Assembly: GCA_000960865.2 (NCBI GenBank)
Contig: JZWU02000007.1
Span: 1-57,290 of the forward strand
DNA: 57,290 nt
Source: Vulcanisaeta sp. AZ3
GTDB lineage: Archaea > Thermoproteota > Thermoprotei > Thermoproteales > Thermocladiaceae
Direction of reading: 5' to 3'
A program made the position numbers and the translations under genes. Positions within the stretch are counted from its first letter, which is position 1. The number at the start of each line of letters is the position of its first letter. Shown piece after piece: positions 20,739-36,794 of this stretch. The notes beneath the pieces were generated by a model that was not told the DNA's origin, ran no database searches, and saw only the letters and a program-made list of their open reading frames with translations.

Positions 20739-20814
20739 TGCGGCCGCCGGGATTTGAACCCGGGTTCTGCGGCTCGGGGGGCCGCCATCCTGGACCAGTC
20801 TAGACCACGGCCGC
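20739..20814 (-). tRNA. tRNA-Gly(CCC), no intron, CCA not encoded
   Basis: GCGGCCG acceptor stem; anticodon arm GCGGC-CCCCCGA-GCCGC; T arm CCGGG-TTCAAAT-CCCGG; 76 nt. Confidence 0.93.
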
Positions 20815-20905
20815 TGTTTTGTAGCGCTTTTGTTGGGTTTTAATTTTTATTTTCTCGTTGGGTTTGCTATATAATTTTTATATTTGTGTTGGTTTGTGGT
20901 TCTTG

Positions 20906-22022: not shown

Positions 22023-22030
22023 TTAAAATA
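22023..22030 (+). promoter_or_regulatory. TATA box of the CM/PDH-aroF-aroB-aroE operon
   Basis: TTAAAATA in the intergenic region; uORF ATG starts 28 nt after it. Confidence 0.55.
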
Positions 22031-22057
22031 TAGCCTCTCTAGTCTTTTGGGATCTCT

Positions 22058-22078
22058 ATGGAATATCAATATTGTTAG
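22058..22078 (+). promoter_or_regulatory. Candidate Tyr-rich leader uORF MEYQYC*
   Basis: ATG GAA TAT CAA TAT TGT TAG at the leaderless-start position, upstream of the Tyr branch gene. Confidence 0.55.
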
Positions 22079-22144
22079 GAGTCTTGGTAAAAACATGTAG
22101 TACGCTTCATCACTTAGTATTAGGTTTGTCGAAGGTGATGGCTT

Positions 22145-23125
22145 ATGCTTAATGCACTTAGGAGTGAGATTGATTCTATTGATGAGGAATTAATTGATTT
22201 GCTGATTAAACGCCTTGAGCTTGCGAGAAGGCTAGGTGTTATTAAGAGAGAGGCTCATTTGCCGATTATTGATGTAGAGCGTGAGGAGGAAGTGATCAGC
22301 AGGTGGGTTAGTAGGTTAGTAGGGGCTGGTGTTAATGAGGAGTTGGCTCATGAGTTGGTTAATGCAATCATTAGGGCTTCAACTTATGTTCAGGTTGGTG
22401 ATAGGTTAAATGTTAGTGTGACTATTGTGGGTTCTGGTCGTGTTGGTAGGACCATGGCTAGGGTACTGAGTAGGGTCGCTACTGTCTCTTTAATACACTT
22501 AGGTGATGAGTTGGGTAGGTCTGATGTTATTATGCTCGCTACAAGGCCCACTAATGATGCTGTAGATTTTGTAGTTAAGAATGTTGAGGCTCTACGTAAT
22601 TCCATACTTGTTGATTTATTCTCAGTGAAGTCTGTATTCTTTAGGGTTTTTGAGGATTTATCATTAAGTCATGGTTTTCATTATGTGAGCGCTCATCCAC
22701 TCTTTGGCGAGGTTGGTGAACCTGTTGGGGAGGGGGTTGTTTTGATTCCTTCTAGGAGCGGTGGAGAGGGGATTAATTTGATTAGGGATTTGTTTGGTAA
22801 TGCTGGTTTGAGCGTCATTATTTTAGATAGTCCTGAGGAGCATGATAGGTTAATGGCCTATCTGCAGGTTGCTCACCATTTAGCCTTACTTGCCCTCTAT
22901 GTGTTATTTAAGAGAGTTGGAGTTGAATTGAGAGGCCCCTTATTAACGCATAGTCTTAGGTATACTGTTAGAGCTATGGATAGAGTGTTGAGCCAGTTAG
23001 ATGTTGTTGAAGAGATACAGAGACTTAATCCCTACTCTCGTGCCGTTAAGGAGGAGTTTTTAAATGCCCTGAGGCTCATAATCAATGCTGTGAATAAGGA
23101 TGAATTGACTAAGGTGATTAAATGA
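22145..23125 (+). CDS. tyrA: Chorismate mutase / prephenate dehydrogenase fusion
   Basis: AroQ-type LRSEIDSIDEELIDLL..R; GSGRVG, DLFSVK, SAHPLFG and EEHDRLMA motifs. Confidence 0.88.
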   Translation: MLNALRSEIDSIDEELIDLLIKRLELARRLGVIKREAHLPIIDVEREEEVISRWVSRLVGAGVNEELAHELVNAIIRASTYVQVGDRLNVSVTIVGSGRVGRTMARVLSRVATVSLIHLGDELGRSDVIMLATRPTNDAVDFVVKNVEALRNSILVDLFSVKSVFFRVFEDLSLSHGFHYVSAHPLFGEVGEPVGEGVVLIPSRSGGEGINLIRDLFGNAGLSVIILDSPEEHDRLMAYLQVAHHLALLALYVLFKRVGVELRGPLLTHSLRYTVRAMDRVLSQLDVVEEIQRLNPYSRAVKEEFLNALRLIINAVNKDELTKVIK

Positions 23126-24117
23126 TAATAAGACCATCACCTGGTAGGATTGAGGATGTAGCTCATGCTCTTGATAAAGCTCATGTTTGGTTTAAGATCT
23201 TAAATATATTCAATGAGGAGTTAATAGTTACTTCACCTGAGGTTAAGGTGGATGAGACGTTAATTAGGGCTGTTGATAGTAATGCGGTCATTATAAACGT
23301 GAAGACTAGGTATCAATTAGCTGGTTCTGAGTGGAGGAGTAGGACTATTGTTGATGTTTCTGGCATTAGAATTGGTAGTGATGAGGTTGTGGTCGCGGCA
23401 GGTCCATGTGCCGTGGAGAGTTACGGACAGGTTAAGGAAGCTGCCATGGCAGTTAAGGAAGCTGGTGCTAAGCTGCTTAGGGGTGGTGCGTTTAAGCCTA
23501 GGACAAGCCCGTACAGCTTTCAGGGGCTTGGTGTTGAGGGTCTTAAGATACTTAGGAGAGTTGGGGATGAGGTTGGTTTGCCTGTCGTCTCGGAGGTCAT
23601 GGATACTAGGATGGTGAGTGTAGTTAGTGAGTATGTGGATATGCTCCAGGTTGGGGCTAGGAATGCTCAGAATTTTGATTTGCTTAGGGAGGTTGGTAGG
23701 TCGGGTAAGCCCGTGCTCCTTAAGAGGGGGTTGGGTAATACTGTAGAGGAATGGTTGGAGGCTGCTGAATACATTCTTCTTGAGGGTAATGGTAATGTAG
23801 TGCTTTGTGAGAGGGGTATTAGGACGTTTGAGCGTTCAACAAGGTTTACTCTAGACCTGGGTGCAGTGGTTGTTGCTAAGAAGTTGACCCACTTGCCTAT
23901 ATGCGTGGATCCGAGTCATCCTGCGGGTAGGAGGGATCTCGTAATACCAATGGCCTTAGCTGCCATAGCTGCTGGTGCTGATATGCTTTTAGTAGAGGTT
24001 CATCCAAGACCTTGGGAGGCTTTGTCTGATGCTGAACAACAGTTGACGCTTGATATGTTTAGGGAGTTGATGGTTAGGGGTAGAGAGGTGGCTAGGGCTA
24101 TTGGTAGGTCCTTATGA
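23122..24117 (+). CDS. aroF: DAHP synthase, type I-beta with N-terminal extension
   Basis: AGPCAVE, RGGAFKPRTSPYSFQG and DPSH motifs. Confidence 0.95.
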   Translation: MIIRPSPGRIEDVAHALDKAHVWFKILNIFNEELIVTSPEVKVDETLIRAVDSNAVIINVKTRYQLAGSEWRSRTIVDVSGIRIGSDEVVVAAGPCAVESYGQVKEAAMAVKEAGAKLLRGGAFKPRTSPYSFQGLGVEGLKILRRVGDEVGLPVVSEVMDTRMVSVVSEYVDMLQVGARNAQNFDLLREVGRSGKPVLLKRGLGNTVEEWLEAAEYILLEGNGNVVLCERGIRTFERSTRFTLDLGAVVVAKKLTHLPICVDPSHPAGRRDLVIPMALAAIAAGADMLLVEVHPRPWEALSDAEQQLTLDMFRELMVRGREVARAIGRSL

Positions 24118-25166
24118 GGGAGTTTACTTATAGGTCGCGTGATGGGGATGTTGAGGTGCTTGTTGGTGTTGATCATGCTGAGGCTGTTGGTAAGTTAGTG
24201 AATAGGTATACTGGATGCGCTGCATTTATTTCTAGAAGTGTGAATAATCTCGTTAGGGTTAGTTGTGATAGTTTAGTTATTGATGATGGTGAATCAGGTA
24301 AGGATGTGAGTACCGTGCTTAGCATAATTAAGTGGGCCCATGATGCTGGTATTGATAGAGACGGCATCTTTTTGGGCATTGGTGGTGGTAGTGTGCTTGA
24401 TGTTGTTGGATTCTCAGCATCAATATATCTGAGGGGTGTGGATTATGTAAATGTCCCAACGACAATGTTATCAATGGTTGATGCATCTCTTGGTGGTAAG
24501 ACTGGTGTTAATGCCATGGGCATTAAGAATGTGATTGGAGTAATTAAGCAGCCGAGGGCTGTGATTGTGGATTTATCATTTCTAAACACATTACCAATGC
24601 CTAACTATGTTGATGGGTTTTCCGAGGTTATGAAGTATGGAGTGACTATGGATAAAGAGTTATTTCACTACGTAATTGATAACAAAGATCCATTACTTAG
24701 TAAGGAGAGGAATGCCTTGGAGTGGGTTATCTATAGGTCCTTAATTAATAAGGCGCTTATTGTAGAGAAGGATGAACTAGATAGAACTGGAGATAGAGCT
24801 GTACTTAATTATGGCCATACGGTAGGTCATGCCATTGAATCTGCCTCGAATTTCTTAATTAGTCATGGTAGGGCTGTGGCCCTTGGCATGATTTGCGAGG
24901 CGAGAATTGGGGTTAAGTTGGGCTACACCTCCGCTGATGTACCTAAGCTCTTAATGAATGCGCTTAGTGGTTACGGATTGATTACTAAGTTTGATCTCTT
25001 TGACCATGTTGACAAGATTGCTAGAGCTATTTCTAGGGATAAGAAGAGGAGTGGTGGGTTCCTCAGATTACCTGTGGTTTTTGATGTGGGTAGGTGGGGT
25101 CTCGTTAAGGTTGGTGTTAATGATTTCGTAAGGTTGGTGATTGAGGAATGCAGGTCTATTCCGTGA
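24114..25166 (+). CDS. aroB: 3-dehydroquinate synthase
   Basis: GGGSVLD, PTTMLSMVDASLGGKTGVN and LNYGHTVGHAIE motifs. Confidence 0.96.
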   Translation: MREFTYRSRDGDVEVLVGVDHAEAVGKLVNRYTGCAAFISRSVNNLVRVSCDSLVIDDGESGKDVSTVLSIIKWAHDAGIDRDGIFLGIGGGSVLDVVGFSASIYLRGVDYVNVPTTMLSMVDASLGGKTGVNAMGIKNVIGVIKQPRAVIVDLSFLNTLPMPNYVDGFSEVMKYGVTMDKELFHYVIDNKDPLLSKERNALEWVIYRSLINKALIVEKDELDRTGDRAVLNYGHTVGHAIESASNFLISHGRAVALGMICEARIGVKLGYTSADVPKLLMNALSGYGLITKFDLFDHVDKIARAISRDKKRSGGFLRLPVVFDVGRWGLVKVGVNDFVRLVIEECRSIP

Positions 25167-25951
25167 TTGGTTACCCACTTAACTACACATTATCACCAGC
25201 GATTCATAATTATGTATTTAAGGCCTTAGGTAAGGATGCAATTTACATACCACTGAAAGTTACTCCGGAGAGACTTCGAAGCTTTGTGGAATTCTCCAGG
25301 GATGCTCTCAGTGGCTTTAACGTGACAATGCCTCATAAGATTCCAATAGTTGGCCTATTAGATGGCGTCATTGGCGCTGCAAGCACCTTAGGTAGTGTGA
25401 ATACTGTTATCAATGTGGGCGGTAAATTGTTGGGTTGGAATACTGATTATGACGCTATTAAGCAGTCATTAAGTGAGAGGGGTTACTCGGGTGAGGATGC
25501 CATCATGGTTGGCGCTGGTGGGGTTGCTAGGGCTGTGATTTTAGCTCTGAGAGATCTGGGTTGTAGAAGAGTTTATGTGATTAATAGGACTGTGAGTAAA
25601 GCTAATGAGCTGTGCGGATTAGCCGAGACTCTCGGATTGGATTGTAAAGCCCTTGGACTATTCAATATTGACGTCAGGGCCTGGCTATTCATCAACGCCA
25701 CACCTCTGGGCACTAATGAGGATTACCCCATAGATCCTAGGCAAGTTAATGCTGGTTTCATACTCGACCTAGCCTATACCCCAAGCGGTGACACAGCCTT
25801 AGTGAGGCTAGCTAGGGGATATTCAATACCGTATGTGGATGGCCTTGAAATACTCATTAGGCAAGCATTGATGGCCGATAGGATTTGGTTTGGAGATTTT
25901 AATAAACCCTCATGGCGTGATGTCCTTGAATCCTTGCACAACCAGGGTTAA
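25148..25951 (+). CDS. aroE: Shikimate dehydrogenase
   Basis: SPAIHN, NVTMPHK, NTD and GAGGVA motifs. Confidence 0.95.
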   Translation: MQVYSVIGYPLNYTLSPAIHNYVFKALGKDAIYIPLKVTPERLRSFVEFSRDALSGFNVTMPHKIPIVGLLDGVIGAASTLGSVNTVINVGGKLLGWNTDYDAIKQSLSERGYSGEDAIMVGAGGVARAVILALRDLGCRRVYVINRTVSKANELCGLAETLGLDCKALGLFNIDVRAWLFINATPLGTNEDYPIDPRQVNAGFILDLAYTPSGDTALVRLARGYSIPYVDGLEILIRQALMADRIWFGDFNKPSWRDVLESLHNQG

Positions 25952-26000
25952 TCTACGTGAAGTTCCGTGAAGTAAGCGAATTAAGGATACACTAGAATGA

Positions 26001-26693
26001 TTATTCAGTGCCAAGTGTCAATAATGATCTTCTTAATAGCTTAATTTTACTACACGTCCCAATGTTTAATTGTCCAGGTCCTGTCTTTCCCTTTACTGAG
26101 CAATACATGATTGGCGTTCCCATCATTATAGAGATTACTCTGTGGATGGGATTCCTTGGTATGACAGCCATGTTAATATCCACCTTTCTCATTAGGTCTA
26201 GTAAATTTAGAATCTCGTTCTCGTTTACGGTAAATATCTTATACATGAAAGCCCTATATCTCTTTGCTAATTCTATGTCCTTAGTTACCAATTCATAGAA
26301 ATTAATGTCACTTTTGAATACGTGCCTTGAGACTATGGAGTTCTCGGCCAATTCCTCAAACATTGATGGATTATTCATTAGTAGGCTTGCCTCAATATCA
26401 ACTAATGCCCCAACCTCCCTACTAACGCTAAGTACCTTATGCTTAATATTTGGATTAATAATGCGATTACCACCCTCGCTGTACTCTCTCACAGTGACTA
26501 TTGTAGGATAGTGAGATACATAATCCTCAATAAACCTCTTAAGCTCCTGGCTAGGCTCAAGGTCATCCATATAATCTAGCCTAAGTTCCACAGCCTCACA
26601 AGATGCCGGCAGGTATTGATAGGTTAGTCTCCTAACGGGCATGGCGCAAACTAGTATGGGCTTATTCAATAGCAGTTTGCCCCATGTACTCAT
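26001..26693 (-). CDS. aroD: Type I 3-dehydroquinate dehydratase
   Basis: ELRLD, TVR...EGG, VDIE, SRH and GPGQ motifs; gene context. Confidence 0.85.
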   Translation of the reverse strand: MSTWGKLLLNKPILVCAMPVRRLTYQYLPASCEAVELRLDYMDDLEPSQELKRFIEDYVSHYPTIVTVREYSEGGNRIINPNIKHKVLSVSREVGALVDIEASLLMNNPSMFEELAENSIVSRHVFKSDINFYELVTKDIELAKRYRAFMYKIFTVNENEILNLLDLMRKVDINMAVIPRNPIHRVISIMMGTPIMYCSVKGKTGPGQLNIGTCSKIKLLRRSLLTLGTE

Positions 26694-26756
26694 TACTAAT
26701 TAGCCATGTTAGAAATTTAAAAATATTGACTCTAAATATCCAATAATAAATAGGTT

Positions 26757-27578
26757 ATGGGCAGAGGCATTGTTGAGTACATAACGTATGGAGGTATAAG
26801 TATAATTAATGCGATACCGGCATGGCTAGGTGGAACCGCTGCTATAAATTTACTGAGTAGAGTGAGAGTTACAGAGGGGACTTGTAGTGTTGACGGGTTT
26901 ATGAGCTTCATACTCAATTATCTAAGAGATAAGTGGGGGTTAGATGCAAATGTATGTGTTAGTGTTGATAGCTCCATACCTGAGTCCAGTGGTTTAAAGA
27001 GTAATAGTGCTGTTGCAGTTGGTATAGTTCACGCAGTTATGGATTTCCTAGGAAGGCCCATAAGCCCTCTTGAGAGTGCCAGGCTTGCCTCCATAATAAC
27101 TAAAGCCCATGGATCATCAATAACGGGGGCCTTCGATGATGCATCAGCTTCAATATTGGGAGGCGTTGTTTTTACGGATAATAAGTCAATGACTATTATT
27201 AAGCATAGGGCTGTTGATGAGCTAAGGGTGATAATTACAGGTTATAAGGAAAGTAAGAGATTAAGTAGAATTAATAGGTTGAGGGCCTTATCTGGTGTTT
27301 ACTCAGCCTTATTTGAGATGGCTGTTAATGGTGATTTATGGAGGGCTGCAACTATAAATGGCATGTTAGTTGCTGAAGCCCTAGGTTACCATAGGGCTCT
27401 CGAGACGATAAGTAACGCTCTAAGGCTTGGCGCCTTGGCCTCTGCCGTGAGTGGTAATGGGCCCTCAATTTACGCAGTCTTCAAGGCTGGGGAGGAGGGA
27501 CCGTTTGTAGATTATGTAGTGAGTTCATGGGGTTATTACCTAACTACGTCATTAGTTGGTCCTCGTTACTCTGTATGA
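26757..27578 (+). CDS. aroK: Archaeal GHMP-type shikimate kinase
   Basis: GGISIINAI, GLKSNSA, SITGAFDD and SGNGPS motifs. Confidence 0.93.
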   Translation: MGRGIVEYITYGGISIINAIPAWLGGTAAINLLSRVRVTEGTCSVDGFMSFILNYLRDKWGLDANVCVSVDSSIPESSGLKSNSAVAVGIVHAVMDFLGRPISPLESARLASIITKAHGSSITGAFDDASASILGGVVFTDNKSMTIIKHRAVDELRVIITGYKESKRLSRINRLRALSGVYSALFEMAVNGDLWRAATINGMLVAEALGYHRALETISNALRLGALASAVSGNGPSIYAVFKAGEEGPFVDYVVSSWGYYLTTSLVGPRYSV

Positions 27579-27637
27579 GACTAGTGAACCTATGGTTAAG
27601 TTTTATGGAAATATAGAGAATATAGGTTAGGATAATC

Positions 27638-27645
27638 TTTAAATA
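27638..27645 (+). promoter_or_regulatory. TATA box of tkt(-aroA)
   Basis: TTTAAATA; uORF ATG starts 26 nt after it, tkt ATG 46 nt after it. Confidence 0.65.
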
Positions 27646-27670
27646 CTTAATATTGAGCTTGCTTGTTCGT

Positions 27671-27697
27671 ATGGAATATCGAAACTTCCAATGGTAA
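27671..27697 (+). promoter_or_regulatory. Candidate aromatic leader uORF MEYRNFQW* overlapping the tkt start
   Basis: ATG GAA TAT CGA AAC TTC CAA TGG TAA; contains Tyr, Phe and Trp codons; tkt ATG at 27691 is in the -1 frame. Confidence 0.65.
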
Positions 27698-29403
27698 TTG
27701 GAAAGCTAAGTGAACCCTTGGATGTTAGTAAACTCATGGAGGTTAGGGATAAGGCAAGGAAAATCCTCGCTGAGTTAGATAAGGAGTTTCCATATATACA
27801 CTTGGGCTCCTCATTGGCAGCCTTGGACGTAATAAATTTGATAATTAGGATTATGAGAAGGGATGGTGATTGTGGTGATAAATTTATACTGAGTATTGGC
27901 CATGTGGCTCCAGCACTCTACTCCTTATTGGCTGTTGAGGGTGTAATACCGATTAGGGAACTCTTTGAGATTAATCACACATACTCGGTAATATCAACTC
28001 ATGCCGATAACATGGATGTACCATACATAGATGCAACCACTGGATCCTTAGGTCAGGGATTAAGCATGGGTGTTGGTTTAGCCCTGGCTAATAGAATTAG
28101 GGGTTGTGAGAAAGGCATTGTGTTTATTTTGATGGGAGATGGTGAGTTAAATGAGGGGCAGTCTTGGGAGGCCGCCATGACTGCCGTTAAGTATAACTTG
28201 AATAACCTAGTAGTCCTTGTTAGTCTCAATGGTTATCAACTAGATGGACAAACATCGTCAATAAAACCAATAAATCCCGTGAAGGTTTTCGAAGCCCTTG
28301 GCTGGAATGTACTTCAGGGTAATGGCCATGATTATGGAGAAATTATGAGACTAATAATGAAAGCCTTAGAGTCCAGGGATAGGCCAACAATCATATTCTT
28401 AAGCACTACGAGGGGCAAGGGAATTAAGGGAATTGAAAACACACATAGGCAAACCCTGAATCCGCCACCAAGACCTCAATTCTCCATGAGGGAAGCCTTA
28501 GGTGTCACTCTTGCTAGGCTTGGTGAGGATAATGATAAGTTAGTCGTAATAACAGCAGACGTTGGTGAATCAACCAGAGCAAGATACTTCGGAGAAAGAT
28601 TTCCTAGTAGATATTTCAATGTGGGTATTTCTGAGCAGGACCTAATTGGCATAGCTGCTGGTCTAGCCCTTGGTGATTATGTGCCTGTGGCGATGGCATA
28701 CGCAATGTTCATGATGAGGGGTTGGGAGCAAATTAGGAATTCCGTGGGTAGGATGAAACTTAATGTGAAGTTCATAGCGACTCACGCAGGGCTTAGTGAT
28801 TTCGCTGATGGGCCAAGTCACCAAGCCCTAGAGGATGTGGCCTTGATGAGGAGTCTTAGTGGGATGGTTGTTGTGGCGCCTGCAGATGCTTGGGATGTGG
28901 AGAGAATACTTCCTAAGGTAATTGAGTATAGAGGGCCTGTATACGTTAGGATTGGCCGTGATTACTCACCGCCAATAACTATGGATTTAGACTACGAGTT
29001 TAGGCTTGGGGAGGTTTATAGTATCGTTGATGGCGATGATGTGGCCATAATGGGCTATGGTCCAGTCCTCTTCAATGCGATACAAGCAGCCATGGAGTTG
29101 AGGAGGAGGGGTATTAGTGTTGGTGTTTATAATATGCCCACGATAAAACCGCTCAATGAGGATTCTGTGAGGAAAATTGCCCGTAGAATTGGTAGAGTAG
29201 TAGTGGTTGAGGAGCATTCGCCCCGTGGTGGGTTAGGATCTGCTATCGCCGAATTGGTTAGTGGTTATGCCAGAGTTGTGACTTTGGGTGTTAATGATTA
29301 TGGGCATTGGGGTAGGTCTGAGGAAGAATTGTTGAGGTTTTACGGACTTGATGAGGAATCAATAATGGATACCATAATGAAAATCGTAAATGAACATATA
29401 TAA
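27691..29403 (+). CDS. tkt: Transketolase, N- and C-terminal halves fused
   Basis: TGSLGQG, GDGELNEG, NVGISEQ and DGPSHQ motifs. Confidence 0.92.
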   Translation: MVIGKLSEPLDVSKLMEVRDKARKILAELDKEFPYIHLGSSLAALDVINLIIRIMRRDGDCGDKFILSIGHVAPALYSLLAVEGVIPIRELFEINHTYSVISTHADNMDVPYIDATTGSLGQGLSMGVGLALANRIRGCEKGIVFILMGDGELNEGQSWEAAMTAVKYNLNNLVVLVSLNGYQLDGQTSSIKPINPVKVFEALGWNVLQGNGHDYGEIMRLIMKALESRDRPTIIFLSTTRGKGIKGIENTHRQTLNPPPRPQFSMREALGVTLARLGEDNDKLVVITADVGESTRARYFGERFPSRYFNVGISEQDLIGIAAGLALGDYVPVAMAYAMFMMRGWEQIRNSVGRMKLNVKFIATHAGLSDFADGPSHQALEDVALMRSLSGMVVVAPADAWDVERILPKVIEYRGPVYVRIGRDYSPPITMDLDYEFRLGEVYSIVDGDDVAIMGYGPVLFNAIQAAMELRRRGISVGVYNMPTIKPLNEDSVRKIARRIGRVVVVEEHSPRGGLGSAIAELVSGYARVVTLGVNDYGHWGRSEEELLRFYGLDEESIMDTIMKIVNEHI

Positions 29404-29445
29404 CCATAAAAAATTTTACTTCAGAAGAATTATGTTAAGTTAGTA

Positions 29446-30736
29446 ATGGGTAAATTGGTGATTAGAGGTTTTAAGGTTAGGAACGAGATTGTTGATGCAC
29501 CACCTAGTAAGGCATTCACTTTGAGATATCTACTTGCCTCCGCCCTATCTAGGACTTGGGTCAATCTTAGGAGATTGAATTGGGGCGATGATACTTGGTC
29601 TATGATCAGGGGTGTGAAGCCAGTAACGGAGATAGAGATTAAGGGAGATCTCGTTAGAGTTAGACGTGGATTAAGCCCCGAACGGTTTAGAATAATTGAT
29701 GTTGGTGAGAGCGGGTTCACTCTTAGAACATTGACCGGAGTCTATGCTGGTATTGACGGTGTTACAATACTCATGCCCAGAGGATCCTTGGTCAATAGGC
29801 CAATGGATGAATTAATAAGTGCTCTAAAGGCTATTAATGCCAAGATTGACAAGTCTGGTAGTGTCATACGGATTGTTGGTGGTAAGTTAGTTGGAGGTTA
29901 CGTATCGATTAATGGCTCGGTGAGTTCACAATTTATATCATCACTTCTCTACCTAGCACCACTCACAGAGAGTGGTATTGAAGTCAGTATCAGGCCTCCA
30001 ATAAAGTCTAGGCCTTATATTGATGCTACCATAAGTGTACTTAGAGATTTTGGAATAAGTGTTGAGGTTGAGGATAACTCAATATACATAGGGGGGGCTG
30101 CAGGAGTATAGGGCTGTTAATGATGAGTTTATAGTGCCTGGGGACTACGCATTATCTGCTTTCTACATGGTTCTATCAGCACTGGCAGGCTTTGACCTTA
30201 GAATCACAAACTTAATGAGAGGTAAAGCTGTGGAGGGTGAATATGCGTTCATAACTCACGCCAAAGAGATGGGAGTAGAGATTGAGGATGGTGATGATTA
30301 CGTGCTCATTAAAGGCTCACAAACTAAGGAATTAGACCCCGTTGATGTCGATCTGAGTGATTCACCTGACATAACAATGCCTCTTGCTCTACTCATGGCA
30401 AGAGCCAAGGGTAAGTCTAAGGTTATGGGCGTTAGTCATATAATTCATAAGGAGAGCAATAGGTTAAGGGGCATAGCGGAGGTGCTTAAGTGTTTAGGTG
30501 CTGGTGTTAGTGTTGATGAGGTTAATGGTATTATTGAGATTGAAGGTGTTAATGAATTTAGAGGTGGATGCGAGGTGGATACTCAGGGTGATCATAGGAT
30601 AATCATGATGGGGGTTGTGGGAGGTCTCCTGGCTAAGGAGGGGGTTATGATTAATGATTGGGAGGGTGTTGGTAAGTCCTGGCCAACCTTTATCTGGGAC
30701 TTGGAAAACCTTGGGGCTGTGTTTAGGTATGAGTAA
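29446..30736 (+). CDS. aroA: EPSP synthase, split by a +1 frameshift in G7 (30091-30097), probably a sequencing error
   Basis: PPSKA, GESGFT, SSQFISS, KESNR and DHRI motifs; G6 restores IGGLQEYRAVNDEFIVPGDY. Confidence 0.92.
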
Positions 30737-31057
30737 TATTATTACCCATAGTACTTAACGATACTATACCAATTCATTCCTCCGTAGATTTAAAGCCAAG
30801 TTACCTTTATCATAACTATGATGCCCTCCCAATTAATAGACATTGAAAGCCCTGTGGTTAGTATTACTCCCCTCTAGATGATGTGCCAAACCTTCATGTC
30901 TGACTAAGCTGCGTTTAAACCATTTAATAACTAATTTGATTTCATGTGAGGTAACTCATTCTTAAAACATGAGCTTAGCCAAACTGTAATCACCTAAGTA
31001 ATTTATCCAAGTTCTCGGTGTAATACATCCATAATCATATAGGTTAAAGGTGATGTT

Positions 31058-31393
31058 TTTCTTAACGAATGATGGTTTGAATAAATAAGGCCATCAACGT
31101 CTTTAGGGCTCGGTATTGCTAAAGCACTACCTGATCTCGAAAATGCTAAATCTATTAAGGATGCATTGTGCGAATCAATTAAGTACGCCATGAACCATTC
31201 TGATGAAGCATTGAGGTATGCTATGAATTTTGCCAGAGGTTTGGATATAAGTGATACAAGAAGGTTCGTGAACATGTACGTGAATGAATACACAATGGAC
31301 ATGAGTATTGAGGGCGAAAAAGCAATTAAGACTTTATTAGAATGGGGCGCTGATGAGAAAATAGTACCTAAGACTCAAGTAGTATTTGTGTAA
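31058..31393 (+). pseudogene. mqnD: 3' remnant of an MqnD-like 1,4-dihydroxy-6-naphthoate synthase
   Basis: FLNE*WFE*IRPSTSLGLGIA...ESIKYA...FVNMYVNEYT; in-frame stops at 31070 and 31082. Confidence 0.7.
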
Positions 31394-31512
31394 TAATGTA
31401 GCCCTCATAATAAATGCTAAAAATGCATTCTACTTTTGACGGAGTTTCTCATGATAATTATTTAAGAATATATACAAATCTTTTTATGCAATACTGAATC
31501 ACGTATTATTGC

Positions 31513-31941
31513 ATGTCCAGAGTACGTGAGATAATATTCTACGGTAGGAGCGGAGATAATCTTCAAAGTGTTACAGATAAGTTAGTTCAGAGCTTAATAA
31601 AGCGTGGCCTCTACGTAACTGCATATTCTGACTATGATCCAGAGAGAAGAGAAAGTGTTGCTAAGGTGCATGTGAGGATTGCTGATGGCCCCATTGATGT
31701 TAGGGGTCCTGTGATTGCTCCGGAGATTGCTGTTTTTATGGATTTTAGGTTGCTTAGTCGGGCTGTTGAGGCATCTAGTGTTAGGAAGTTAATTGTTAAT
31801 GCTCCTAATAGGGAGTTGGTGGCTAAGTATATTAGTAATAACGCTGAGGTACATACAATAAACCTATACAGCCTAATTAAGACTGGCAATGATTATACAA
31901 GCCCATTAATCGACACCATAATAAAAACCCTCAATACCTAG
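31513..31941 (+). CDS. Stand-alone 2-oxoacid:ferredoxin oxidoreductase gamma-subunit-like protein
   Basis: [10 protein letters not shown] and YDPERR...HVRI resemble PorC EIRFHGRGG and FGAERRG. Confidence 0.7.
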
Positions 31942-31961
31942 CCCCATTCTATGCTGGTGTT

Positions 31962-32843
31962 ATGCTTTTCCTAACTATTTGGTATACACGGACAGAAAGG
32001 GCAACTGCTAATGGTCTATTTACTACTGCAGCACCTCTTTCTGGGGTTATTGGGGGTTTGATAGCTGGTGCTATTTTTGCGTTTTATGGTAATTATCTAG
32101 GTTGGCGCTATCTCTTTTGGTATGAAGGGGCCTTGGCATTGATAGGGGCATTAATGGCATACTTCCTACTAACAGACCTCCCACACCAAGCCAAGTGGTT
32201 AAGTGAGGAGGAGAAGGAAGAACTTGCGAGGGCTAAGGCTGAGGAGGAAACTCAACAGTTAAAGGTCAAGTGGACCAAGGCACTAGCCAATAGGAATGTT
32301 ATACTGTTGGCAATTGTTTATTTCCTTGGCGAAACTGGCTTCTATGGCTATGCAATTTGGTTGCCAAGTATTATAAAGGTTATAGCTTCGGTCAGTGCTA
32401 GTCTTGCAAGCTATCTCTCAGCATTAACCGCTGCAGTTGCTGTAATTTCATTACCTTTCATAGCTAGATATGCTGATAGGAAACAAAATCATAAGTTCCT
32501 TACGGTGTTAATACTCATAATCACTGCGATAAGCCTGGTATTAAGTGCATTAACCAAAGAAATCTTCGTGTTATCCTTTATTTTCCTCACAATAGCAGCC
32601 TTAGGAGTATATAATTACCTTCCTCTATTTTGGGCAGTACCTCAAAAGTCTCTTCATGGTGATGCTGCTGCAGCCTCTATAGGCCTTATAAACGCTATAG
32701 GAAATTTGGGAGGAGGAATTGTAGGCCCAATAGTAGTGGGGGCTTTAGAATCCTTAACTGGATCCTTCATGCCTGGAATATACGCCTTGGCATTATTAGT
32801 ATTCTTGGCAGGAATTGTAATGCTCCTCGTCAAATTTAAATAA
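31962..32843 (+). pseudogene. N-terminally truncated MFS transporter (anion:cation symporter-like)
   Basis: Starts at [13 protein letters not shown] (mid-protein); GWRYLF and [11 protein letters not shown]; only 293 aa and abuts the previous gene. Confidence 0.7.
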
Positions 32844-32919
32844 AGAATAAAAAATTAATACAACGATTAGATTAAAATCATAGTTTTCTTTTCTTAGCAA
32901 GAATAGTTGGATTAAGAAA

Positions 32920-33660
32920 TTATAGTTTAATGTTTGAGAGTTCTTCGGAAAGATTGGGGTTCCTCATGAGAGCCGTACCGACGAGGATTGCGTTAGAGCC
33001 CTCTCTAGCAAGCCTTATAGCATCTTCGGCATTTCTAATGCCACTCTCGGCAATTATAAGGTCTGCTTTACCTCTAACTAACCTAAGTATTGATATTGTT
33101 CTATCCAGTGATATCGAGAGGTTACCTAGATCTCTTGAATTTATGCCTAGCATTACATTGGGATTTGTGGATATTACGTCAATTGCATCAGCCTCATTAT
33201 CAACCTCAATTAGCGGTTCAAGGCCTTCATTAGCAGCGTAATCCGCAAGATCCCAAAGTTTTTCGTTGAGCAGCCTCTTGATTAGTAGTATTGAGCTGGC
33301 TCCGAGCTCCCGAGCCTCCTTTATCTGCTCCTTACTAATCACAAAGTCCTTATAGAGTATTGGCTTCCCATAGTTGAGAGCTATCTTTATGAATATGGGC
33401 GAGCCGAGAAAGTAAAGAGGCTCCACAAGTATGCTTAGGCCAGTGGCGTACCTACTCACTATGTCGAAGTATGTCCAGGGGTCAAGATCGAGTCTAATAA
33501 TGCCGCTTGGACTAGCCCTCTTATACTCTGCGATTAGGGCTAGGTAGCCCTCGGAATTCCTAACCTTAATGGCTTTAGTCATGCTTGGGGCTTTGGCAGT
33601 TAATTGCATAGTATTGATACGTTTCATGGTGAATTCACTGATGGTGTTTAAGAAATCCAT
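32920..33660 (-). CDS. trpC: Indole-3-glycerol phosphate synthase
   Basis: IAEYKRASPSG, KDF, GINSRDL and AESGI motifs. Confidence 0.95.
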   Translation of the reverse strand: MDFLNTISEFTMKRINTMQLTAKAPSMTKAIKVRNSEGYLALIAEYKRASPSGIIRLDLDPWTYFDIVSRYATGLSILVEPLYFLGSPIFIKIALNYGKPILYKDFVISKEQIKEARELGASSILLIKRLLNEKLWDLADYAANEGLEPLIEVDNEADAIDVISTNPNVMLGINSRDLGNLSISLDRTISILRLVRGKADLIIAESGIRNAEDAIRLAREGSNAILVGTALMRNPNLSEELSNIKL

Positions 33661-33774
33661 CAATTATACCTCAATAGGCTCATTAATAAAGCATTACCTA
33701 ACTACATAGGTTATTAATTGATTATATATCATTATTGGGCTAGTAATTATTAATGAGCATCATATACATAATGT

Positions 33775-33782
33775 TTTTAAAT
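33775..33782 (+). promoter_or_regulatory. TATA box of trpABDFEG
   Basis: TTTTAAAT; uORF ATG starts 28 nt after it, trpA ATG 39 nt after it. Confidence 0.65.
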
Positions 33783-33809
33783 GCCCCAATCCTAAGCTAG
33801 TCGGTGGTT

Positions 33810-33830
33810 ATGGAGCTCCAATGGACATAA
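33810..33830 (+). promoter_or_regulatory. Candidate Trp leader uORF MELQWT* overlapping the trpA start
   Basis: ATG GAG CTC CAA TGG ACA TAA; trpA ATG at 33821 is in the -1 frame. Confidence 0.65.
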
Positions 33831-34540
33831 AGAGACCGGGACTGGGTGCATACATAACAGCCACATACCCGAATAAAACTACGTTTCTAAACGTAATAAG
33901 ATGCCTCTCCAGTGTTTCAGATTTCCTCGAGGTTGGTATACCAACACGTAATCCTAAGTATGACGGACCACTTATTAGAAAGGCTCACTTCGCAGCTGAG
34001 TTGAGTGGTTTAGAGGCAGTTAGTGTAACTAGGTATGGGGGTGTTCCAACGATATTGATGGGTTATGTGGAGGATTATGTGAATAAGCTTGATCAGGTTG
34101 CTGAGGTTGCGGTTAAGGTTGGTGCTGTCTCAATACTCTTTCCAGACTTACTTTTTGAGTATTTGGATAAGGTTGAGGATTATGCAACTGTCATGAAGGA
34201 TTATGGACTCAGACCTAGTTTCTTCGTTTCTAGTAATACGCCTCATAGGATTGTGAGTTCTCTCATTAAGTATGAACCTCTCTTCATATACTTAGGCCTC
34301 TATGCGTCTACAGGCATAAGGTTACCGCTATACATTGAGAGGAATATTAGGGAGGTTAGAAGGTTGGTGGATGGAGTAACTCTAGTGGCGGGCTTCGCCA
34401 TAAATACGCCTGAGATGGTTAGGCTTGTAATAAATGCAGGTGCCGATGCCGTGGTTGTCGGTACCGCACTTATGGATAAGTTAAGTGATGAGAGGAAGTG
34501 TATGGAGTTCATGGAGTACCTAAGGGGTGGTTTACTATGA
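33821..34540 (+). CDS. trpA: Tryptophan synthase alpha chain
   Basis: LEVGIP..NPKYDGP, AGFAI and [10 protein letters not shown] motifs. Confidence 0.92.
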
Positions 34541-35790
34541 TGGTTCCTCACTATTGGTACAATATAAATGTAGACCTACCGAGACCCCTACCGCCACCGA
34601 TTGATCCTTACGAGGGCGACTCAAGAATTGCACTGCTCATGAGAATATTACCCAGTGAGTTGTTAGATCAGGAGTTCACAGCGCTTAGGTATGTGCCGAT
34701 ACCTGATGAGGTTAGGGAGCTTTATGCTAGGGTTGGTAGGCCAACGCCTCTCTTCAGGGCTTATGGGCTTGAGAAAGCTTTAGGCACGGGTGTTAGGATT
34801 TACTATAAGTTTGAGGGTGCATTACCAGCGGGTTCACATAAGCTTAACACGGCTCTGGCTCAGGTATATTATGCCCTTAAGGATGGAGCGAGAGAAGTTA
34901 TTACAGAGACGGGTGCTGGCCAGTGGGGGTTGGCTGTTTCTTTAGCATCCTCGCTCCTTGGTGTTAGGGCTACGGTATTCATGACCAAGAACTCCTACTA
35001 CAATAAGAGGGGTAGGGTTCTCTTCATGAAGACGTACGGCGCTAAGGTTTACCCAAGCCCCAGTCAGTTGACGAAGTATGGTAAGGAGGCCCTAAGGGTT
35101 AAGCCGGATCATCCTGGAAGTCTTGGTTTAGCTATTACTGAAGCAATTGAGTACACACTCATGGATGAGGGTAGAAAATACATACCGGGTAGTGTGCTTG
35201 GGTTCGTAGTTCTTCATCAAACAGTCATTGGTCAGGAGGCAATTAGGCAGTTGCCTGAGGAACCAGACCTAGTGATTGGATGCGTTGGCGGTGGCTCTAA
35301 TTTCAGTGGTTTCTCCTTCCCAATGATTGGTGTTAAACTCAGGGGTGAGGGATTTAGTAAGACGAGGTTTCTGGCTGTTGAATCCGAGGCTGCACCTAAA
35401 CTAACAAAGGGTGAGTATGGATATGACTTCCCAGATAGTGGTGGTTTATTACCTATGGTGAAGATGTTAACGCTGGGGCACGACTTCATACCGCCACCAA
35501 CTCATGCCGCTGGACTTAGGTATCACGGAGCTGCGCCAGCCCTGTCCTTATTGGTTAGGGAGGGTATTGTGGAGGCAAGATCTTACGGTCAAGAGGAGGT
35601 TATTGAAGCTGCAAGACTCTTTGCAAGGACCGAGGGGATATTGCCAGCTCCAGAGTCTGCTCATGCTATTAGGGCTGTGATTGATGAGGCAAGAAGGCTA
35701 CCGAGGGGCTCTGTGATAGCTTTCAACTTGTCGGGTCATGGCTTGTTGGATCAGGACTTCTATGAGAAGGTAGTAGGTGATGAGGAGTGA
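34537..35790 (+). CDS. trpB: Tryptophan synthase beta chain, TrpB2 type
   Basis: [21 protein letters not shown] and GLRYHG; ATGA overlap with the trpA stop. Confidence 0.95.
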
Positions 35791-36794
35791 GGGATTTACT
35801 GGATAAGGTTGCGAGGAGAGTGCATTTGACGTTTGAGGAGGCCTATGGCGTAGCTAGGGATATGTTGGGTGGTGTTGATGAGGCTTTGGGGGCTGCGGTA
35901 CTGATGGGTCTTAGGGTTAAGGGTGAGGCTGCAGAGGAGATAGCCGGCTTTGCTAAAGCCCTCAGAGATAGTTGTATTAAGATACCACTGGGTGAGGAAC
36001 TCGATAGGTTCATTGATACTGCTGGGACTGGTGGCGATGGTTTTGGAACTCTAAATGCCTCAACAATTGCTGCATTAGTATCAGCGTACTTGGGAGCTCA
36101 CGTGATTAAGCATGGCAATAGGAGTGTGTCCTCAACCTCTGGAAGTGCTGATTTCCTAGAGGCACTGGGCTTCAACATAGAGATTCCGCCGAAGAAGGTC
36201 GCAGAGATGGCCTTGAAGTATAGGTTCTCCTTTGCCTTCGCTCCAGCTTACCATCCAGCAATGCGTAATGTCATGCCAGTAAGGAGGAAGCTTGGTATTA
36301 GGACTATATTTAATCTTATAGGTCCCTTAGCAAACCCGGCATTAGTCACTAGACAGTTAATTGGAGTTGCAGATAGCTCCTTGATTGATGTAATGGCTCA
36401 GGCAGCTATGATGTTGGGTTTCGAGAAAGCTGTGCTTGTGCATGGGGAGCCTGGCATTGATGAGGTTTCGGTCTTCGGCAAGACCATCGTGGTTGAGGTT
36501 AATGGGAGAAGGATTGATAAGTATTTAGTGGAGCCTAGGGATCTTGGGCTTAGGGAGTATAGGATTGAGGATGTCCACGTCAGTAGTCCAAGAGAGAGTG
36601 TGGAGAGGTTTAAGAGAGCTGTTGCTAGTGCTGATTTAGCGTCTAGAGACTTCATTACGGCGAACACAGCCTTTGCCCTCTATGTGGCTGGCATAGTTAG
36701 AGATCTTAAGGATGGTGTTGAGTTAGTTAAGGCTGAGTTTGATGAGGGTGTTTTGGATTACGTGGATGAGTTAGTTAGGGTGAGTAGATCATGA
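35787..36794 (+). CDS. trpD: Anthranilate phosphoribosyltransferase
   Basis: DTAGTGGDG and KHGNRSVSS motifs. Confidence 0.97.

Follow-up and report, generated by a model that had tools for sequence, protein, structure and literature searches.

Three operons for aromatic amino-acid biosynthesis in the hot-spring archaeon Vulcanisaeta sp. AZ3 are each headed by one micro-ORF of 6–8 codons, which raises the question of whether such ORFs sense the supply of the operons' own products. The operons lie in the window, the whole stretch of 57,290 nucleotides that was analyzed (assembly GCA_000960865.2, contig JZWU02000007.1, positions 1 to 57,290, forward strand). A preliminary description had placed the micro-ORFs at 22058, 27671, and 33810, and they are present in the sequence exactly as claimed; NCBIfam assignments also agree with the downstream genes it had named. 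No comparable micro-ORF was found upstream of aroC, aroK, aroD, and trpC, the cluster's remaining transcription units. Their conservation in relatives points to the ribosome itself as a sensor of amino-acid supply.

All features are on the + strand. In the first unit, a TATA-like box (22023..22032; hexamer start 35 nt 5′ of the ATG) precedes micro-ORF 1, MEYQYC-stop (22058..22078; Tyr codons 22064-22066 and 22070-22072), and an operon of abutting or overlapping ORFs for chorismate mutase/prephenate dehydrogenase (CM/PDH), DAHP synthase, aroB, and aroE (22145..25951). In the second, the box at 27638..27645 (hexamer start 32–33 nt 5′ of the ATG) is followed by micro-ORF 2, MEYRNFQW-stop (27671..27697), whose TGG-TAA overlaps the tkt ATG (27691); the operon (27691..30736) consists of a fused transketolase gene (27691-29403) and aroA (29446-30736), the latter broken by a frameshift in this assembly. 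In the third, a box recognized from sequence (33774..33781) precedes micro-ORF 3 (33804..33830; stop TAA 33828-33830) and the genes trpA, trpB2-type, trpD, trpF, trpE, and trpG (33821..39253). Micro-ORF 3 reads MELQWT from the ATG at 33810, or VMELQWT from an in-frame GTG at 33804. This GTG lies 27–29 nt from the TATA hexamer, is retained in 10/10 same-genus loci with an intact frame, and may be the true start.

Two geometries are seen. The tkt and trpA micro-ORFs end atop the enzyme ATG (the Trp codon of micro-ORF 3, 33822-33824, overlaps the trpA ATG, 33821-33823), and the enzyme occupies the −1 frame relative to the micro-ORF. Wherever the micro-ORF is present, its stop follows the enzyme ATG within 1–7 nt, and no Shine-Dalgarno-like motif was found directly upstream of the tkt and trpA ATGs at the AZ3 loci. 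CM/PDH and a further gene, ilvB, have their own Shine-Dalgarno-led ATG 65–85 nt downstream of the micro-ORF.

Within this genome, the ORFs are unremarkable in aromatic content. The preliminary description held that they begin at the distance from TATA typical of leaderless genes. The interval from hexamer start to micro-ORF start is 32–35 nt in all three units, and genome-wide the ATGs of ORFs ≥100 codons peak 28–33 nt past TATA hexamers (62, 106, 105, 85, 83, and 47, versus about 12–40 at other distances), so the spacing either equals that of leaderless genes or is 2–5 nt longer. For ORFs of ≤15 codons, the genome-wide profile is flat (76–138 per nt), without a rise at the leaderless distance. 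A count of intergenic, TATA-linked micro-ORFs upstream of genes gave 133, of which 62 contain an aromatic residue, and aromatic codons make up 93/721 (12.9%) of their total. The three micro-ORFs rank 12, 15, and 40 among the 133 in aromatic fraction, and are thus not above chance expectation in this genome alone. The excess over chance lies in the conservation seen when genomes are compared.

Alignment of orthologous 5′ regions bore out the expectation that start, aromatic codons, frame, and stop would be conserved (trpA 16/17, tkt 16/16, CM/PDH 11/11). At trpA, 17 loci belonging to three genera of this family were compared, and in 16 a micro-ORF ending in [L/P]-Q-W-x-stop lies over the enzyme ATG; in the sole exception, from an assembly where many genes are broken, a C run is 2 nt longer. 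Variants include MELQWT, MPQW[SRTKV], MPPQWS, MMVTMKLQWR, MRDGKLQWV, MSGEARLQWA, and MRKDQLQWV. The Trp codon is partly forced, since the TG of TGG is also that of the enzyme ATG. Further constraint is visible in trpA itself, where codon 2 varies among D, V, E, and G but keeps G as its first base, codon 3 reads either ATA or GTA, and codon 4 begins with A; as a result, the micro-ORF TGG and TAA are kept. Among 384 leaderless-type genes genome-wide, just 30% have G at +4 and 12% such a stop.

Before tkt, a micro-ORF with Tyr, Phe, and Trp occurs in 16/16 loci of two genera with dissimilar sequences. It takes the form M-E-Y-x-(x)-F-Q-W-stop in 12/12 Vulcanisaeta loci and is also found in 7/7 named Vulcanisaeta records, while the second genus has an unrelated-looking MEFGTHVEYLEW-stop in 4/4 loci, again with Phe, Tyr, and Trp. 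The composition-based chance of all three aromatics is 5.7e-3 for 7 codons, 2.2e-2 for 11, and about 6–8e-2 for 16–18, and their presence holds across three lineages with dissimilar sequences.

The CM/PDH micro-ORF begins M-E-Y in 11/11 Vulcanisaeta genomes and varies thereafter (MEYQYQ, MEYLDS in seven, MEYYLDP, MEYLEA); same-genus loci have a TATA-like box at the equivalent position. In AZ3, the −1 frame is stop-free over the whole leader (22060..22152), ending at a TAA (22150-22152) 5 nt past the A of the enzyme ATG. Across nine such leaders, 0 stops occur in the −1 frame versus 30 each in frames 0 and +1; in 9/9, the −1 frame terminates 4–13 nt past the enzyme ATG, and in one genome (G012) it is the enzyme frame itself. 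A predicted minimum-free-energy hairpin (22107..22141; 22107-22115 paired with 22133-22141) masks the Shine-Dalgarno-like GGTGAT at 22134-22139. Similar local hairpins over the Shine-Dalgarno sequence are predicted in 6/9 leaders; the paired probability exceeds that of shuffles just modestly, and at 75 °C the hairpin is marginal.

Several changes among these loci fit coding constraint, as read from the alignments. Three independent 3-nt indels are in frame (MPPQWS, MEYQFQW, and MEYYLDP), the Tyr codon alternates between TAT and TAC, starts between ATG and GTG, and stops between TAA and TGA, and non-aromatic positions vary. In no relative is the micro-ORF in frame with the enzyme; it is always out of frame or separated by a stop. 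Constraint on peptide and on nucleotides is not fully separable, because conservation extends to 9–10 nt 5′ of the micro-ORF 1 ATG and the ilvB micro-ORF is nearly invariant at the nucleotide level.

The idea of a cognate micro-ORF is supported, by comparative evidence, for one further operon and for a sister family. In AZ3, ilvB is preceded by TATA, MRCFILYV-stop, about 85 nt, and GGTGAT-ATG; this is the only one of five upstream micro-ORFs common to relatives. It occurs in 14/14 loci of two genera, with Ile, Leu, and Val invariant and the Cys, Phe, and Tyr positions varying. In the sister family, ilvB leaders carry Val and Leu codons in 8/8 loci and Ile in 6/8, and leaders of the tkt N-subunit carry Tyr and Trp in 9/9 and Phe in 7/9. 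Their words are quite different (GGGG plus a cognate codon), yet the ORF logic is retained.

What, then, might account for this pattern? Mere chance is hardly credible. AT-rich promoter-proximal DNA often opens short ORFs, and the pathway match could be a post hoc reading, as the 133 comparable ORFs and the flat profile would allow. Comparative data disfavor this account, given the conserved loci in flanks diverged beyond alignment, the composition-based probabilities above, and the recurrence of the same logic at ilvB and in the sister family. It is also quite unlikely that conserved words at the transcription start bind a putative aromatic-regulon repressor, with the small ORFs as by-products. 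Archaeal repressors usually act at sites overlapping the transcription start, and inverted repeats occur among the conserved words, which are TGGAAT...ATTCCA (tkt), TGGA..TCCA (trpA), and the block GGGAyCTCT-ATGGAATATC (CM/PDH). Conservation upstream of the micro-ORF 1 ATG fits such an operator, as does the tkt leader, where variable codons 4–5 double as the repeat spacer. The half-site also resembles the Thermococcus Tar box, TGGACA-N8-TGTCCA. Tar and TrpY homologs, for their part, are reported to be all but missing from Crenarchaeota (PMC6737238). Half-site spacing is, however, unequal: about 1–2 nt at trpA, 6 nt at CM/PDH, and 4, 7, or 9 nt at tkt. In the second genus, the tkt leader contains direct repeats, three of them and all in frame, in place of an inverted repeat, while the sister family uses other words yet retains the ORF logic. 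The shared word ATGGAATA[TC] occurs 47 times genome-wide versus about 40 expected, only the two aromatic sites lie behind promoters of biosynthetic genes, and it is not a genome-wide operator. An operator would also leave unexplained the retention of start, stop, and frame through in-frame indels, the stop-free −1 frame, and Ile, Leu, and Val before ilvB.

Two further explanations grant that the ORFs are translated. They may simply load ribosomes constitutively at a leaderless 5′ end, delivering them by termination-reinitiation to enzyme starts that are not themselves leaderless (nor, for tkt and trpA, Shine-Dalgarno-led), without sensing amino-acid supply. Overlapping stop and start is the classical geometry of translational coupling, and matches the 1–7 nt between ATG and stop and the lack of an adjacent Shine-Dalgarno-like motif at tkt and trpA. 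Such coupling predicts no codon content, yet Tyr, Phe, and Trp (at ilvB, Ile, Leu, and Val) are invariant across lineages with otherwise dissimilar micro-ORFs, and the CM/PDH and ilvB starts are Shine-Dalgarno-led and far from the micro-ORF stop; this account is rather unlikely. Alternatively, in the manner of TnaC or the fungal arginine attenuator peptide, the nascent peptide and free Trp, Tyr, or Phe could stall the ribosome at the micro-ORF stop, occluding the enzyme ATG in times of abundance. This would give tkt and trpA the right regulatory sign without recoding, and their micro-ORFs have Trp as the final or penultimate residue and a stop overlapping the enzyme start. An arrest peptide is nonetheless very improbable: known metabolite-sensing examples are far longer than the 5–12 residues encoded here, non-aromatic residues are poorly conserved, and CM/PDH and ilvB are unsuited, with micro-ORFs ending 65–85 nt before the enzyme start.

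The explanation we favor, and consider probable from the conserved start, codons, frame, and stop, develops the one advanced in the preliminary description: the micro-ORFs would be leaderless sensors, and pausing of ribosomes at their cognate codons would control the synthesis of the enzymes. Transcription would start at, or a few bases before, the micro-ORF start codon, where ribosomes would load leaderless. Within 2–7 codons, the ribosome would reach codons for the operon's own product: Tyr before CM/PDH-DAHPS, Tyr, Phe, and Trp before tkt-aroA, and Trp before trpABDFEG. Scarcity of the cognate aminoacyl-tRNA would cause a pause with an empty A site, which may alter, in a direction and degree that we infer, the number of ribosomes proceeding to the enzyme genes. 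The operons would be united by dependence on tRNA charging, with no common regulator protein.

The analogy to bacterial attenuation did not hold for the step that follows. No conserved alternative hairpins were found in the leaders (the consensus folds contained 0 and 4 pairs), nor was Shine-Dalgarno unmasking by a stalled ribosome, as masking the first 24 nt left that sequence paired. If the ribosome simply stalled at the Trp codon, it would sit over the ATG of tkt or trpA and reduce expression during starvation, a response of the wrong sign. A different effector step is therefore needed. The likeliest candidate, offered tentatively, is that the pause makes the P-site tRNA slip by −1; this is suggested by the −1 enzyme frames of tkt and trpA and the absence of stops from that frame in nine CM/PDH leaders. 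Termination-reinitiation at the overlapping stop and start is an alternative.

If true, this would be ribosome-sensed amino-acid control of a kind so far undescribed in archaea, for which no archaeal precedent was found in the literature searched. Bacterial leaders carry consecutive runs of cognate codons, whereas each of the Vulcanisaeta micro-ORFs carries just one to three and no such run. For Crenarchaeota, mostly without Tar and TrpY homologs, "a third regulator or mechanism" has been postulated (PMC6737238). A parallel comes from mycobacteria, where operons are regulated by leaderless, cognate-codon sORFs (bioRxiv 10.1101/834739). The term "ribulon", used of mycobacteria, could be applied in the same sense to Vulcanisaeta operons that share a dependence on tRNA charging.

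Three short ORFs, MEYQYC-stop (micro-ORF 1, 22058-22078), MEYRNFQW-stop (micro-ORF 2, 27671-27697) and MELQWT-stop (micro-ORF 3, 33810-33830), are encoded just where the preliminary description had placed them, and NCBIfam models give the genes behind them the names that it had proposed. Micro-ORF 1 precedes the gene for chorismate mutase/prephenate dehydrogenase (CM/PDH, 22145-23125), which is followed by those for DAHP synthase, aroB and aroE, up to 25951. Micro-ORF 2 precedes a fused transketolase gene (tkt, 27691-29403) and aroA (29446-30736), the latter in two frames, while micro-ORF 3 heads trpA, a TrpB2-type trpB, trpD, trpF, trpE and trpG (33821-39253). The same models identify aroC (20858-22003), aroD (26001-26693, minus strand), an archaeal shikimate kinase gene (26757-27578) and trpC (32920-33663, minus strand).

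Other features of the region can be described briefly. The genome assembly comprises 1.51 Mb in 55 contigs and is ~90% complete. The two ORFs of aroA, which lie in different frames, are broken near 30090-30096 at a run of seven Gs, and the two halves share one frame in 7/7 loci of the same genus; the split reflects either a fault of the assembly or a frameshift that this genome acquired recently. An MFS transporter ORF (31962-32843), located between the aro and trp genes, has the D-galactonate, 4-hydroxyphenylacetate and aromatic acid:H+ symporter families as its best models. It aligns to these models only from about position 106 and seems to be without its N-terminal third. A tRNA-like sequence (20735-20815) occurs immediately 5′ of the aroC promoter.

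A TATA-like box precedes each micro-ORF. In this genome, ORFs of at least 100 codons have their ATGs sharply concentrated 28-33 nt from the start of the TATA hexamer, and the organism therefore uses leaderless mRNAs. The micro-ORFs start 35 nt (CM/PDH), 32-33 nt (tkt) and 33-35 nt (trpA) from the hexamer, and the range across loci is 27-36 nt, as compared with 28-33 nt for the leaderless peak. Judged by this spacing, they begin at, or a few bases from, the expected 5′ end of the transcript, and the spacing fits the leaderless-like placement originally proposed for them. For micro-ORF 3, an in-frame GTG at 33804 lies 27-29 nt from the hexamer, is kept in 10/10 frame-intact loci of the same genus, and may be the real start. 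No micro-ORF is present in the upstream regions of aroC, aroK, aroD and trpC within the cluster, and these genes start directly at the leaderless distance.

Two of the micro-ORFs overlap the start of the enzyme that they precede. The tkt ATG is overlapped by the last sense codon and stop (TGG TAA) of micro-ORF 2, and the trpA ATG by the Trp codon of micro-ORF 3, which stops two codons later. Both genes are in the -1 frame of their micro-ORF, that is, one base back from the micro-ORF frame (frame 0), and the micro-ORF stops (TAA or TGA) fall 1-7 nt past the enzyme ATG. Micro-ORF 1, in contrast, is separated by 66 nt from the CM/PDH ATG, and a GGTGAT lies 5 nt ahead of this ATG. A four-codon ORF, M-A-Y-A-stop (22139-22152), overlaps this ATG in the -1 frame of micro-ORF 1 and is the tail of a stop-free -1 frame.

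A genome-wide count of such ORFs, a check that the preliminary description had proposed, places the pattern at no more than chance when this genome is taken by itself. At the leaderless distance there is no genome-wide excess of micro-ORFs with at most 15 codons. Intergenic, TATA-linked micro-ORFs within 200 nt upstream of a same-strand ORF number 133; 62 of these hold an aromatic residue, aromatic codons make up 12.9% of all their codons, and the three micro-ORFs rank 12th, 15th and 40th by aromatic fraction. Members of the same null list, among them the Lys-rich MKKKKYLKALKR followed by a stop, head unrelated genes. Since the statistics of the genome itself are unremarkable, the case rests on comparison with relatives.

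Forty relatives from three families of the order were searched with TrpA, Tkt and CM/PDH as queries, and their upstream regions were compared, with gene starts placed by tblastn alignment instead of annotation. The cognate codons expected from the preliminary description are kept in the orthologous 5′ regions: Tyr at CM/PDH in 11/11 loci, Tyr, Phe and Trp at tkt in 16/16, and Trp at trpA in 16/17, although these and similar counts overstate independence because the genomes are kin to each other and represent ~3-5 lineages per element. In the 17 loci of Vulcanisaeta and two other genera (g2 and g5) where trpA heads the operon, 16 have an overlapping micro-ORF ending in [L/P]-Q-W-x-stop. Examples are MPQWS, MPQWR, MPQWT, MPQWK, MPQWV, MPPQWS, MMVTMKLQWR, MRDGKLQWV, MSGEARLQWA and MRKDQLQWV. 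The exception, G009, has a run of Cs that is two bases longer, and its tkt is also broken in the assembly. No Trp-containing micro-ORF occurs at trpA in the other 13 loci (genus g4 and the sister family, f2), where the gene either lies behind another gene or is itself leaderless. The overlap is mirrored in TrpA: residue 2 is D, V, E or G, with a codon that always starts with G, residue 3 is encoded by ATA or GTA, and the codon for residue 4 starts with A. As a result of this base pattern in codons 2-4, the TGG and TAA of the micro-ORF both survive. For comparison, among 384 leaderless-type genes genome-wide, G is found at +4 in 30% and such a stop in 12%.

At tkt, M-E-Y-[R/Q]-[N/D/E]-F-Q-W-stop is found in 12/12 Vulcanisaeta loci, one of which is a codon shorter (MEYQFQW), and again in 7/7 named Vulcanisaeta records. 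The Tyr codon is TAC in two of the 12 and TAT elsewhere, while the stop is TAA or TGA, tracking a synonymous Val codon of Tkt. In genus g2, 4/4 loci carry MEFGTHVEYLEW-stop, which is unalignable with the Vulcanisaeta form yet likewise has all three aromatic residues, with its end on the tkt ATG. By micro-ORF codon composition, Phe, Tyr and Trp would occur together with a probability of 0.006 in 7 codons, 0.02 in 11 and 0.06-0.08 in 16-18. The micro-ORF of genus g5 (L041, L042) reads MQLEYL-stop. These g5 loci have ATA at the position of the Vulcanisaeta tkt ATG, and their first in-frame ATG is ~27 codons downstream, with the frame open throughout. At CM/PDH, all 11 Vulcanisaeta genomes begin with M-E-Y, followed by QYC, QYQ, LDS (7 genomes), YLDP or LEA. 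In g2 and g5, CM/PDH is directly behind tkt, so that one micro-ORF serves both.

A related arrangement exists outside the aromatic pathways. On contig 5 of this genome, ilvB (acetolactate synthase) has the same architecture as the CM/PDH unit: a TATA box, MRCFILYV-stop at the leaderless distance (15374-15400), ~85 nt of spacer, GGTGAT, and the enzyme ATG at 15484. This micro-ORF is present in all 14 loci of Vulcanisaeta and g2 that include the N-terminus (L087-L093 and L104-L109 among them). Its constant residues are Ile, Leu and Val; variation falls on the Cys, Phe and Tyr positions, as in MRYFILYVQ, MRCPILYV, MRCFILQVQ and MRCFILYVR. Four other upstream micro-ORFs at ilvB in this genome are not common to relatives. 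Elsewhere, the upstream regions of thrC and argG in this genome hold no convincing cognate micro-ORF, and hisG was not found in a search of the ~90%-complete genome. The thrC gene is preceded by METRN-stop or MGIEMETRN-stop, with one Thr codon.

The sister family follows the same logic with different sequences. In eight complete or near-complete genomes (L096-L103), ilvB has only one start codon at the leaderless distance, an ATG whose ORF begins M-S-G-V-(x)-S-G-L-x-x-G-I, in which Val, Leu and, in 6/8, Ile codons each stand right behind GGG, itself preceded by G. This context is written G·GGG here, with the base preceding a P-site codon set before the dot. The enzyme lies in the -1 frame of the leaderless ATG. 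Six of the eight loci lack any in-frame ATG, GTG or TTG from the upstream stop to the conserved N-terminal helix, and in the other two the only in-frame start is 20-22 nt after the TATA hexamer, upstream of the expected transcript start. Judging from these reading frames, ilvB of the sister family looks like a case of obligatory -1 recoding. The tkt N-subunit gene of the same family (nine loci; L050, L051, L053-L059) has a micro-ORF of the form M..G-Y..S-G-W, extended by E-G-F in 7/9. Each of its aromatic codons follows G·GGG, and an enzyme-frame GTG overlaps the Trp codon.

How such ORFs might act on the enzyme genes can be approached through RNA structure. Hairpins of the bacterial attenuator type between leader ORF and gene, the analogy drawn in the preliminary description, do not appear: consensus folds of 9 CM/PDH and 11 ilvB leaders contain 0 and 4 pairs, respectively, and at tkt and trpA the micro-ORF overlaps the ATG, leaving no spacer and no room for them. 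A local hairpin over the Shine-Dalgarno sequence is seen in folds of 6/9 CM/PDH leaders (in the window, 22107-22115 with 22133-22141) and becomes marginal on folding at 75 °C. Individual leaders folded at 37 and 75 °C, with or without masking of the first 24 nt, show no release of the Shine-Dalgarno sequence. The paired probabilities of CM/PDH leaders with and without pairing of these 24 nt are unchanged (e.g., 0.85 vs. 0.85 and 0.77 vs. 0.78), and the folds of ilvB leaders are no different from those of shuffled sequences. Translational attenuation of the erm or mycobacterial type is thus unsupported, with neither a consensus structure nor Shine-Dalgarno unmasking.

The main rival to a role in translation is a DNA operator, whereby the conserved words would be read as protein-binding sites. 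TGGAAT/ATTCCA-type repeats that recall the Tar box are indeed present, and conservation extends 9-10 nt upstream of micro-ORF 1. However, the spacing of the half-sites varies with operon and genome (~1-2, 4, 6, 7 or 9 nt), in place of the fixed spacing of Tar- or TrpY-type sites; g2 has direct in-frame repeats, and the sister family uses other words with the same ORF logic. Nor is the word enriched genome-wide. As a regulon-wide motif, ATGGAATA followed by T or C occurs 47 times in the genome vs. ~40 expected from base composition, and its two other promoter-near matches (contig 8 at 2289, and window position 45026) lie ahead of unrelated genes or no genes. An operator would also leave the frame-preserving indels and the stop-free frame unexplained. 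The preliminary description saw no aromatic-specific repressor gene in the cluster, and NCBIfam likewise finds no regulator-like ORF among the 19 cluster proteins scanned. Two further alternatives keep the ORF as the functional unit. A constitutive coupling ORF, translated merely to deliver ribosomes to the enzyme, leaves unexplained why it is the cognate codons that are invariant. An arrest peptide that senses the free amino acid would have the right regulatory sign, but is a poor fit to the peptide lengths, to the CM/PDH unit and to ilvB.

The sign of regulation also bears on simple stalling. A ribosome paused at the Trp codon would cover the tkt or trpA ATG, so that stalling by itself should lower enzyme output on starvation, opposite to the sign required. 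One tentative reading, drawn from the arrangement of frames and codons and held at rather less than even confidence, is that the operons are turned on by starvation-triggered -1 recoding. A ribosome short of the charged cognate tRNA would halt at a Tyr, Phe or Trp codon, its A site empty. The P-site tRNA, paired with GAA or CAA (or with GGG in the sister family), could then move back by one base, re-pair with G·GA or C·CA (G·GG) and carry translation into the -1 frame. At tkt and trpA, the slipped ribosome would make the enzyme with a short N-terminal extension, whereas at CM/PDH it would traverse a stop-free frame of 30 codons, passing through the Shine-Dalgarno hairpin, and be delivered to the enzyme ATG. 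With the amino acid plentiful, the ribosome would stay in frame and terminate after 6-8 codons.

Several observations are consistent with -1 recoding. Across nine CM/PDH leaders, frames 0 and +1 each have 30 stops from the micro-ORF ATG to the enzyme ATG, whereas frame -1 has none. These leaders share only 46-86% identity in their spacers, and shuffling leaves the -1 frame free of stops in 10-20% of trials for each sequence. All nine -1 frames terminate 4-13 nt past the A of the enzyme ATG (5 nt in the window), and no start codon opens this frame in the stretch from the TATA box to the micro-ORF. The count of nine excludes L068 (G012), where the enzyme start is unsettled, L071 (G002), where the assembly has the N-terminal 29 residues out of frame, L063, with its N-terminus off the contig, and L084/L085, which duplicate L075/L076. 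In G012, the CM/PDH frame is itself the -1 frame of MEYLEA-stop, the leader extends only ~8 nt past this ORF, and a TTG at residue 5 is the earliest start in the enzyme frame.

The codons next to the cognate codons show a comparable regularity. In all loci with micro-ORFs of the window's own family, G·GAA or C·CAA precedes the first Tyr codon and the Trp codon. G·GAA precedes the first Tyr codon everywhere and, in g2, all three aromatic codons; C·CAA precedes Trp, and in the sister family G·GGG precedes all cognate codons. Re-pairing one base to the left is perfect for G·GGG, involves a G-U pair for G·GAA, and succeeds at two of three positions for C·CAA. The base before CAA is always C even though the residue it belongs to is Leu, Pro or Phe, a constancy that a slip site would explain. 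Each such slip would lead, without a stop, to the enzyme (tkt, trpA and ilvB of the sister family) or to the enzyme start (CM/PDH). The slip context does not extend to the second Tyr of micro-ORF 1, to Phe in 6/12 Vulcanisaeta tkt leaders, or to the ilvB micro-ORF of the window's own family.

Confidence in -1 recoding is lowered for a number of reasons. Both tkt and trpA keep their own ATG, which favors initiation or reinitiation there, and C·CAA is a poor slip site. Phe lacks the matched 5′ base, identical to base 1 of the P-site codon, in the six tkt leaders just mentioned, where the P-site codon is AAC or GAC in five and A·GAA in one. The ilvB leader of the window's own family is at odds with it: just 5/11 leaders have a -1 frame open as far as the enzyme start, and the P-site contexts are not slippery, so that the frameshift reading does not cover it. 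Termination-reinitiation at the overlapping stop and start is the conservative alternative for the effector step.

Regulation of amino-acid biosynthesis in Crenarchaeota is an acknowledged gap (PMC6737238). The micro-ORFs offer a concrete, testable candidate at no fewer than four operons in two families, with elements of 20-40 nt that are short enough for reporters. Were -1 recoding to prove correct, a hungry-codon slip would be put to regulatory use with one codon and one slip site, requiring neither an RNA switch nor a regulator protein, and spanning aromatic and branched-chain operons of the Thermoproteales. In Pyrobaculum- and Thermoproteus-like genomes, ilvB would be translatable solely by a -1 slip. 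It would also be the second programmed -1 frameshift in Archaea and the first case, in any domain, of hungry-codon slippage as a designed switch of biosynthetic operons. The start-codon annotation of these genes would change accordingly, with several relatives lacking an in-frame start for ilvB or CM/PDH.

In bacteria, it is textbook knowledge that leader ORFs let the ribosome sense charged tRNA; no archaeal counterpart was found in the literature searched. To our knowledge, archaeal termination makes no use of attenuator hairpins of the bacterial kind. Attenuators of this kind control the bacterial trp, phe, his, leu and ilv operons (PMC1183508). They likewise use a cognate-codon leader ORF and the ribosome as a sensor of charged tRNA. 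The cognate-codon leader is all that these classical systems share with the present one. Unlike them, the micro-ORFs are putatively leaderless, only 6-12 codons long and overlap the start of the structural gene, and no alternative hairpins or intrinsic terminator were found.

Classical translational coupling by termination-reinitiation joins two full-length genes. The present layout resembles it in that the micro-ORF stops 1-7 nt after the tkt or trpA ATG and the CM/PDH -1 frame ends 4-13 nt after the ATG, but the upstream partner here is an ORF of 6-12 codons whose conserved content is cognate codons. We know of hungry frameshifting as an error or incidental event, and not as a device for switching on biosynthetic operons. 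In the "hungry" -1 frameshift, the P-site tRNA slips next to a vacant A site, and a single programmed -1 frameshift, in fucA1 of Saccharolobus solfataricus, had been reported for Archaea in a 2021 review (PMC8211752). The proposed mechanism would be alike in that the cognate codon is the vacant A-site codon, the preceding codon can re-pair, and the -1 frame leads to the enzyme or its start.

Among archaeal regulators, Tar (TK0271) of Thermococcus kodakarensis and TrpY of Methanothermobacter are mostly lacking in Crenarchaeota, according to the Tar report. There, the authors propose a third regulator or mechanism and leave control of the crenarchaeal aro, tyr-phe and trp operons open (PMC6737238). 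They describe Tar as a transcription activator that is encoded inside the aro operon and binds a box upstream of BRE/TATA with a fixed N8 spacing (PMC6737238). A TGGA-type inverted repeat at promoters is common to both systems. Unlike Tar boxes, the words described here lie at the predicted transcription start with variable spacing and within ORFs, and the cluster holds no regulator gene.

The leaderless polycysteine short ORFs of mycobacteria, or "ribulon" (Canestrari et al., bioRxiv 10.1101/834739), are the nearest described system. The ribulon is bacterial, while the present system is archaeal (Thermoproteales). Its short ORFs contain at least two consecutive Cys codons, whereas one to three single codons occur here, with three (or six) amino acids matched per operon; only G001 has two adjacent Tyr codons (MEYYLDP). 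In the ribulon, a stalled ribosome opens an RNA duplex that hides the ribosome-binding site, whereas masking of the micro-ORF here frees no Shine-Dalgarno sequence, and two of the three micro-ORFs overlap the enzyme start codon. In the ribulon a leaderless short ORF is the first cistron, as is proposed here, and in both systems the codons of the short ORF are cognate to the product of the pathway. Several unlinked operons carry the same kind of short ORF here as well, namely the three aromatic units in the window and ilvB on another contig. As in the ribulon, unlinked operons would be coordinated through tRNA charging instead of a regulator protein, with control proposed to fall on translation of the downstream gene (10.1101/834739).
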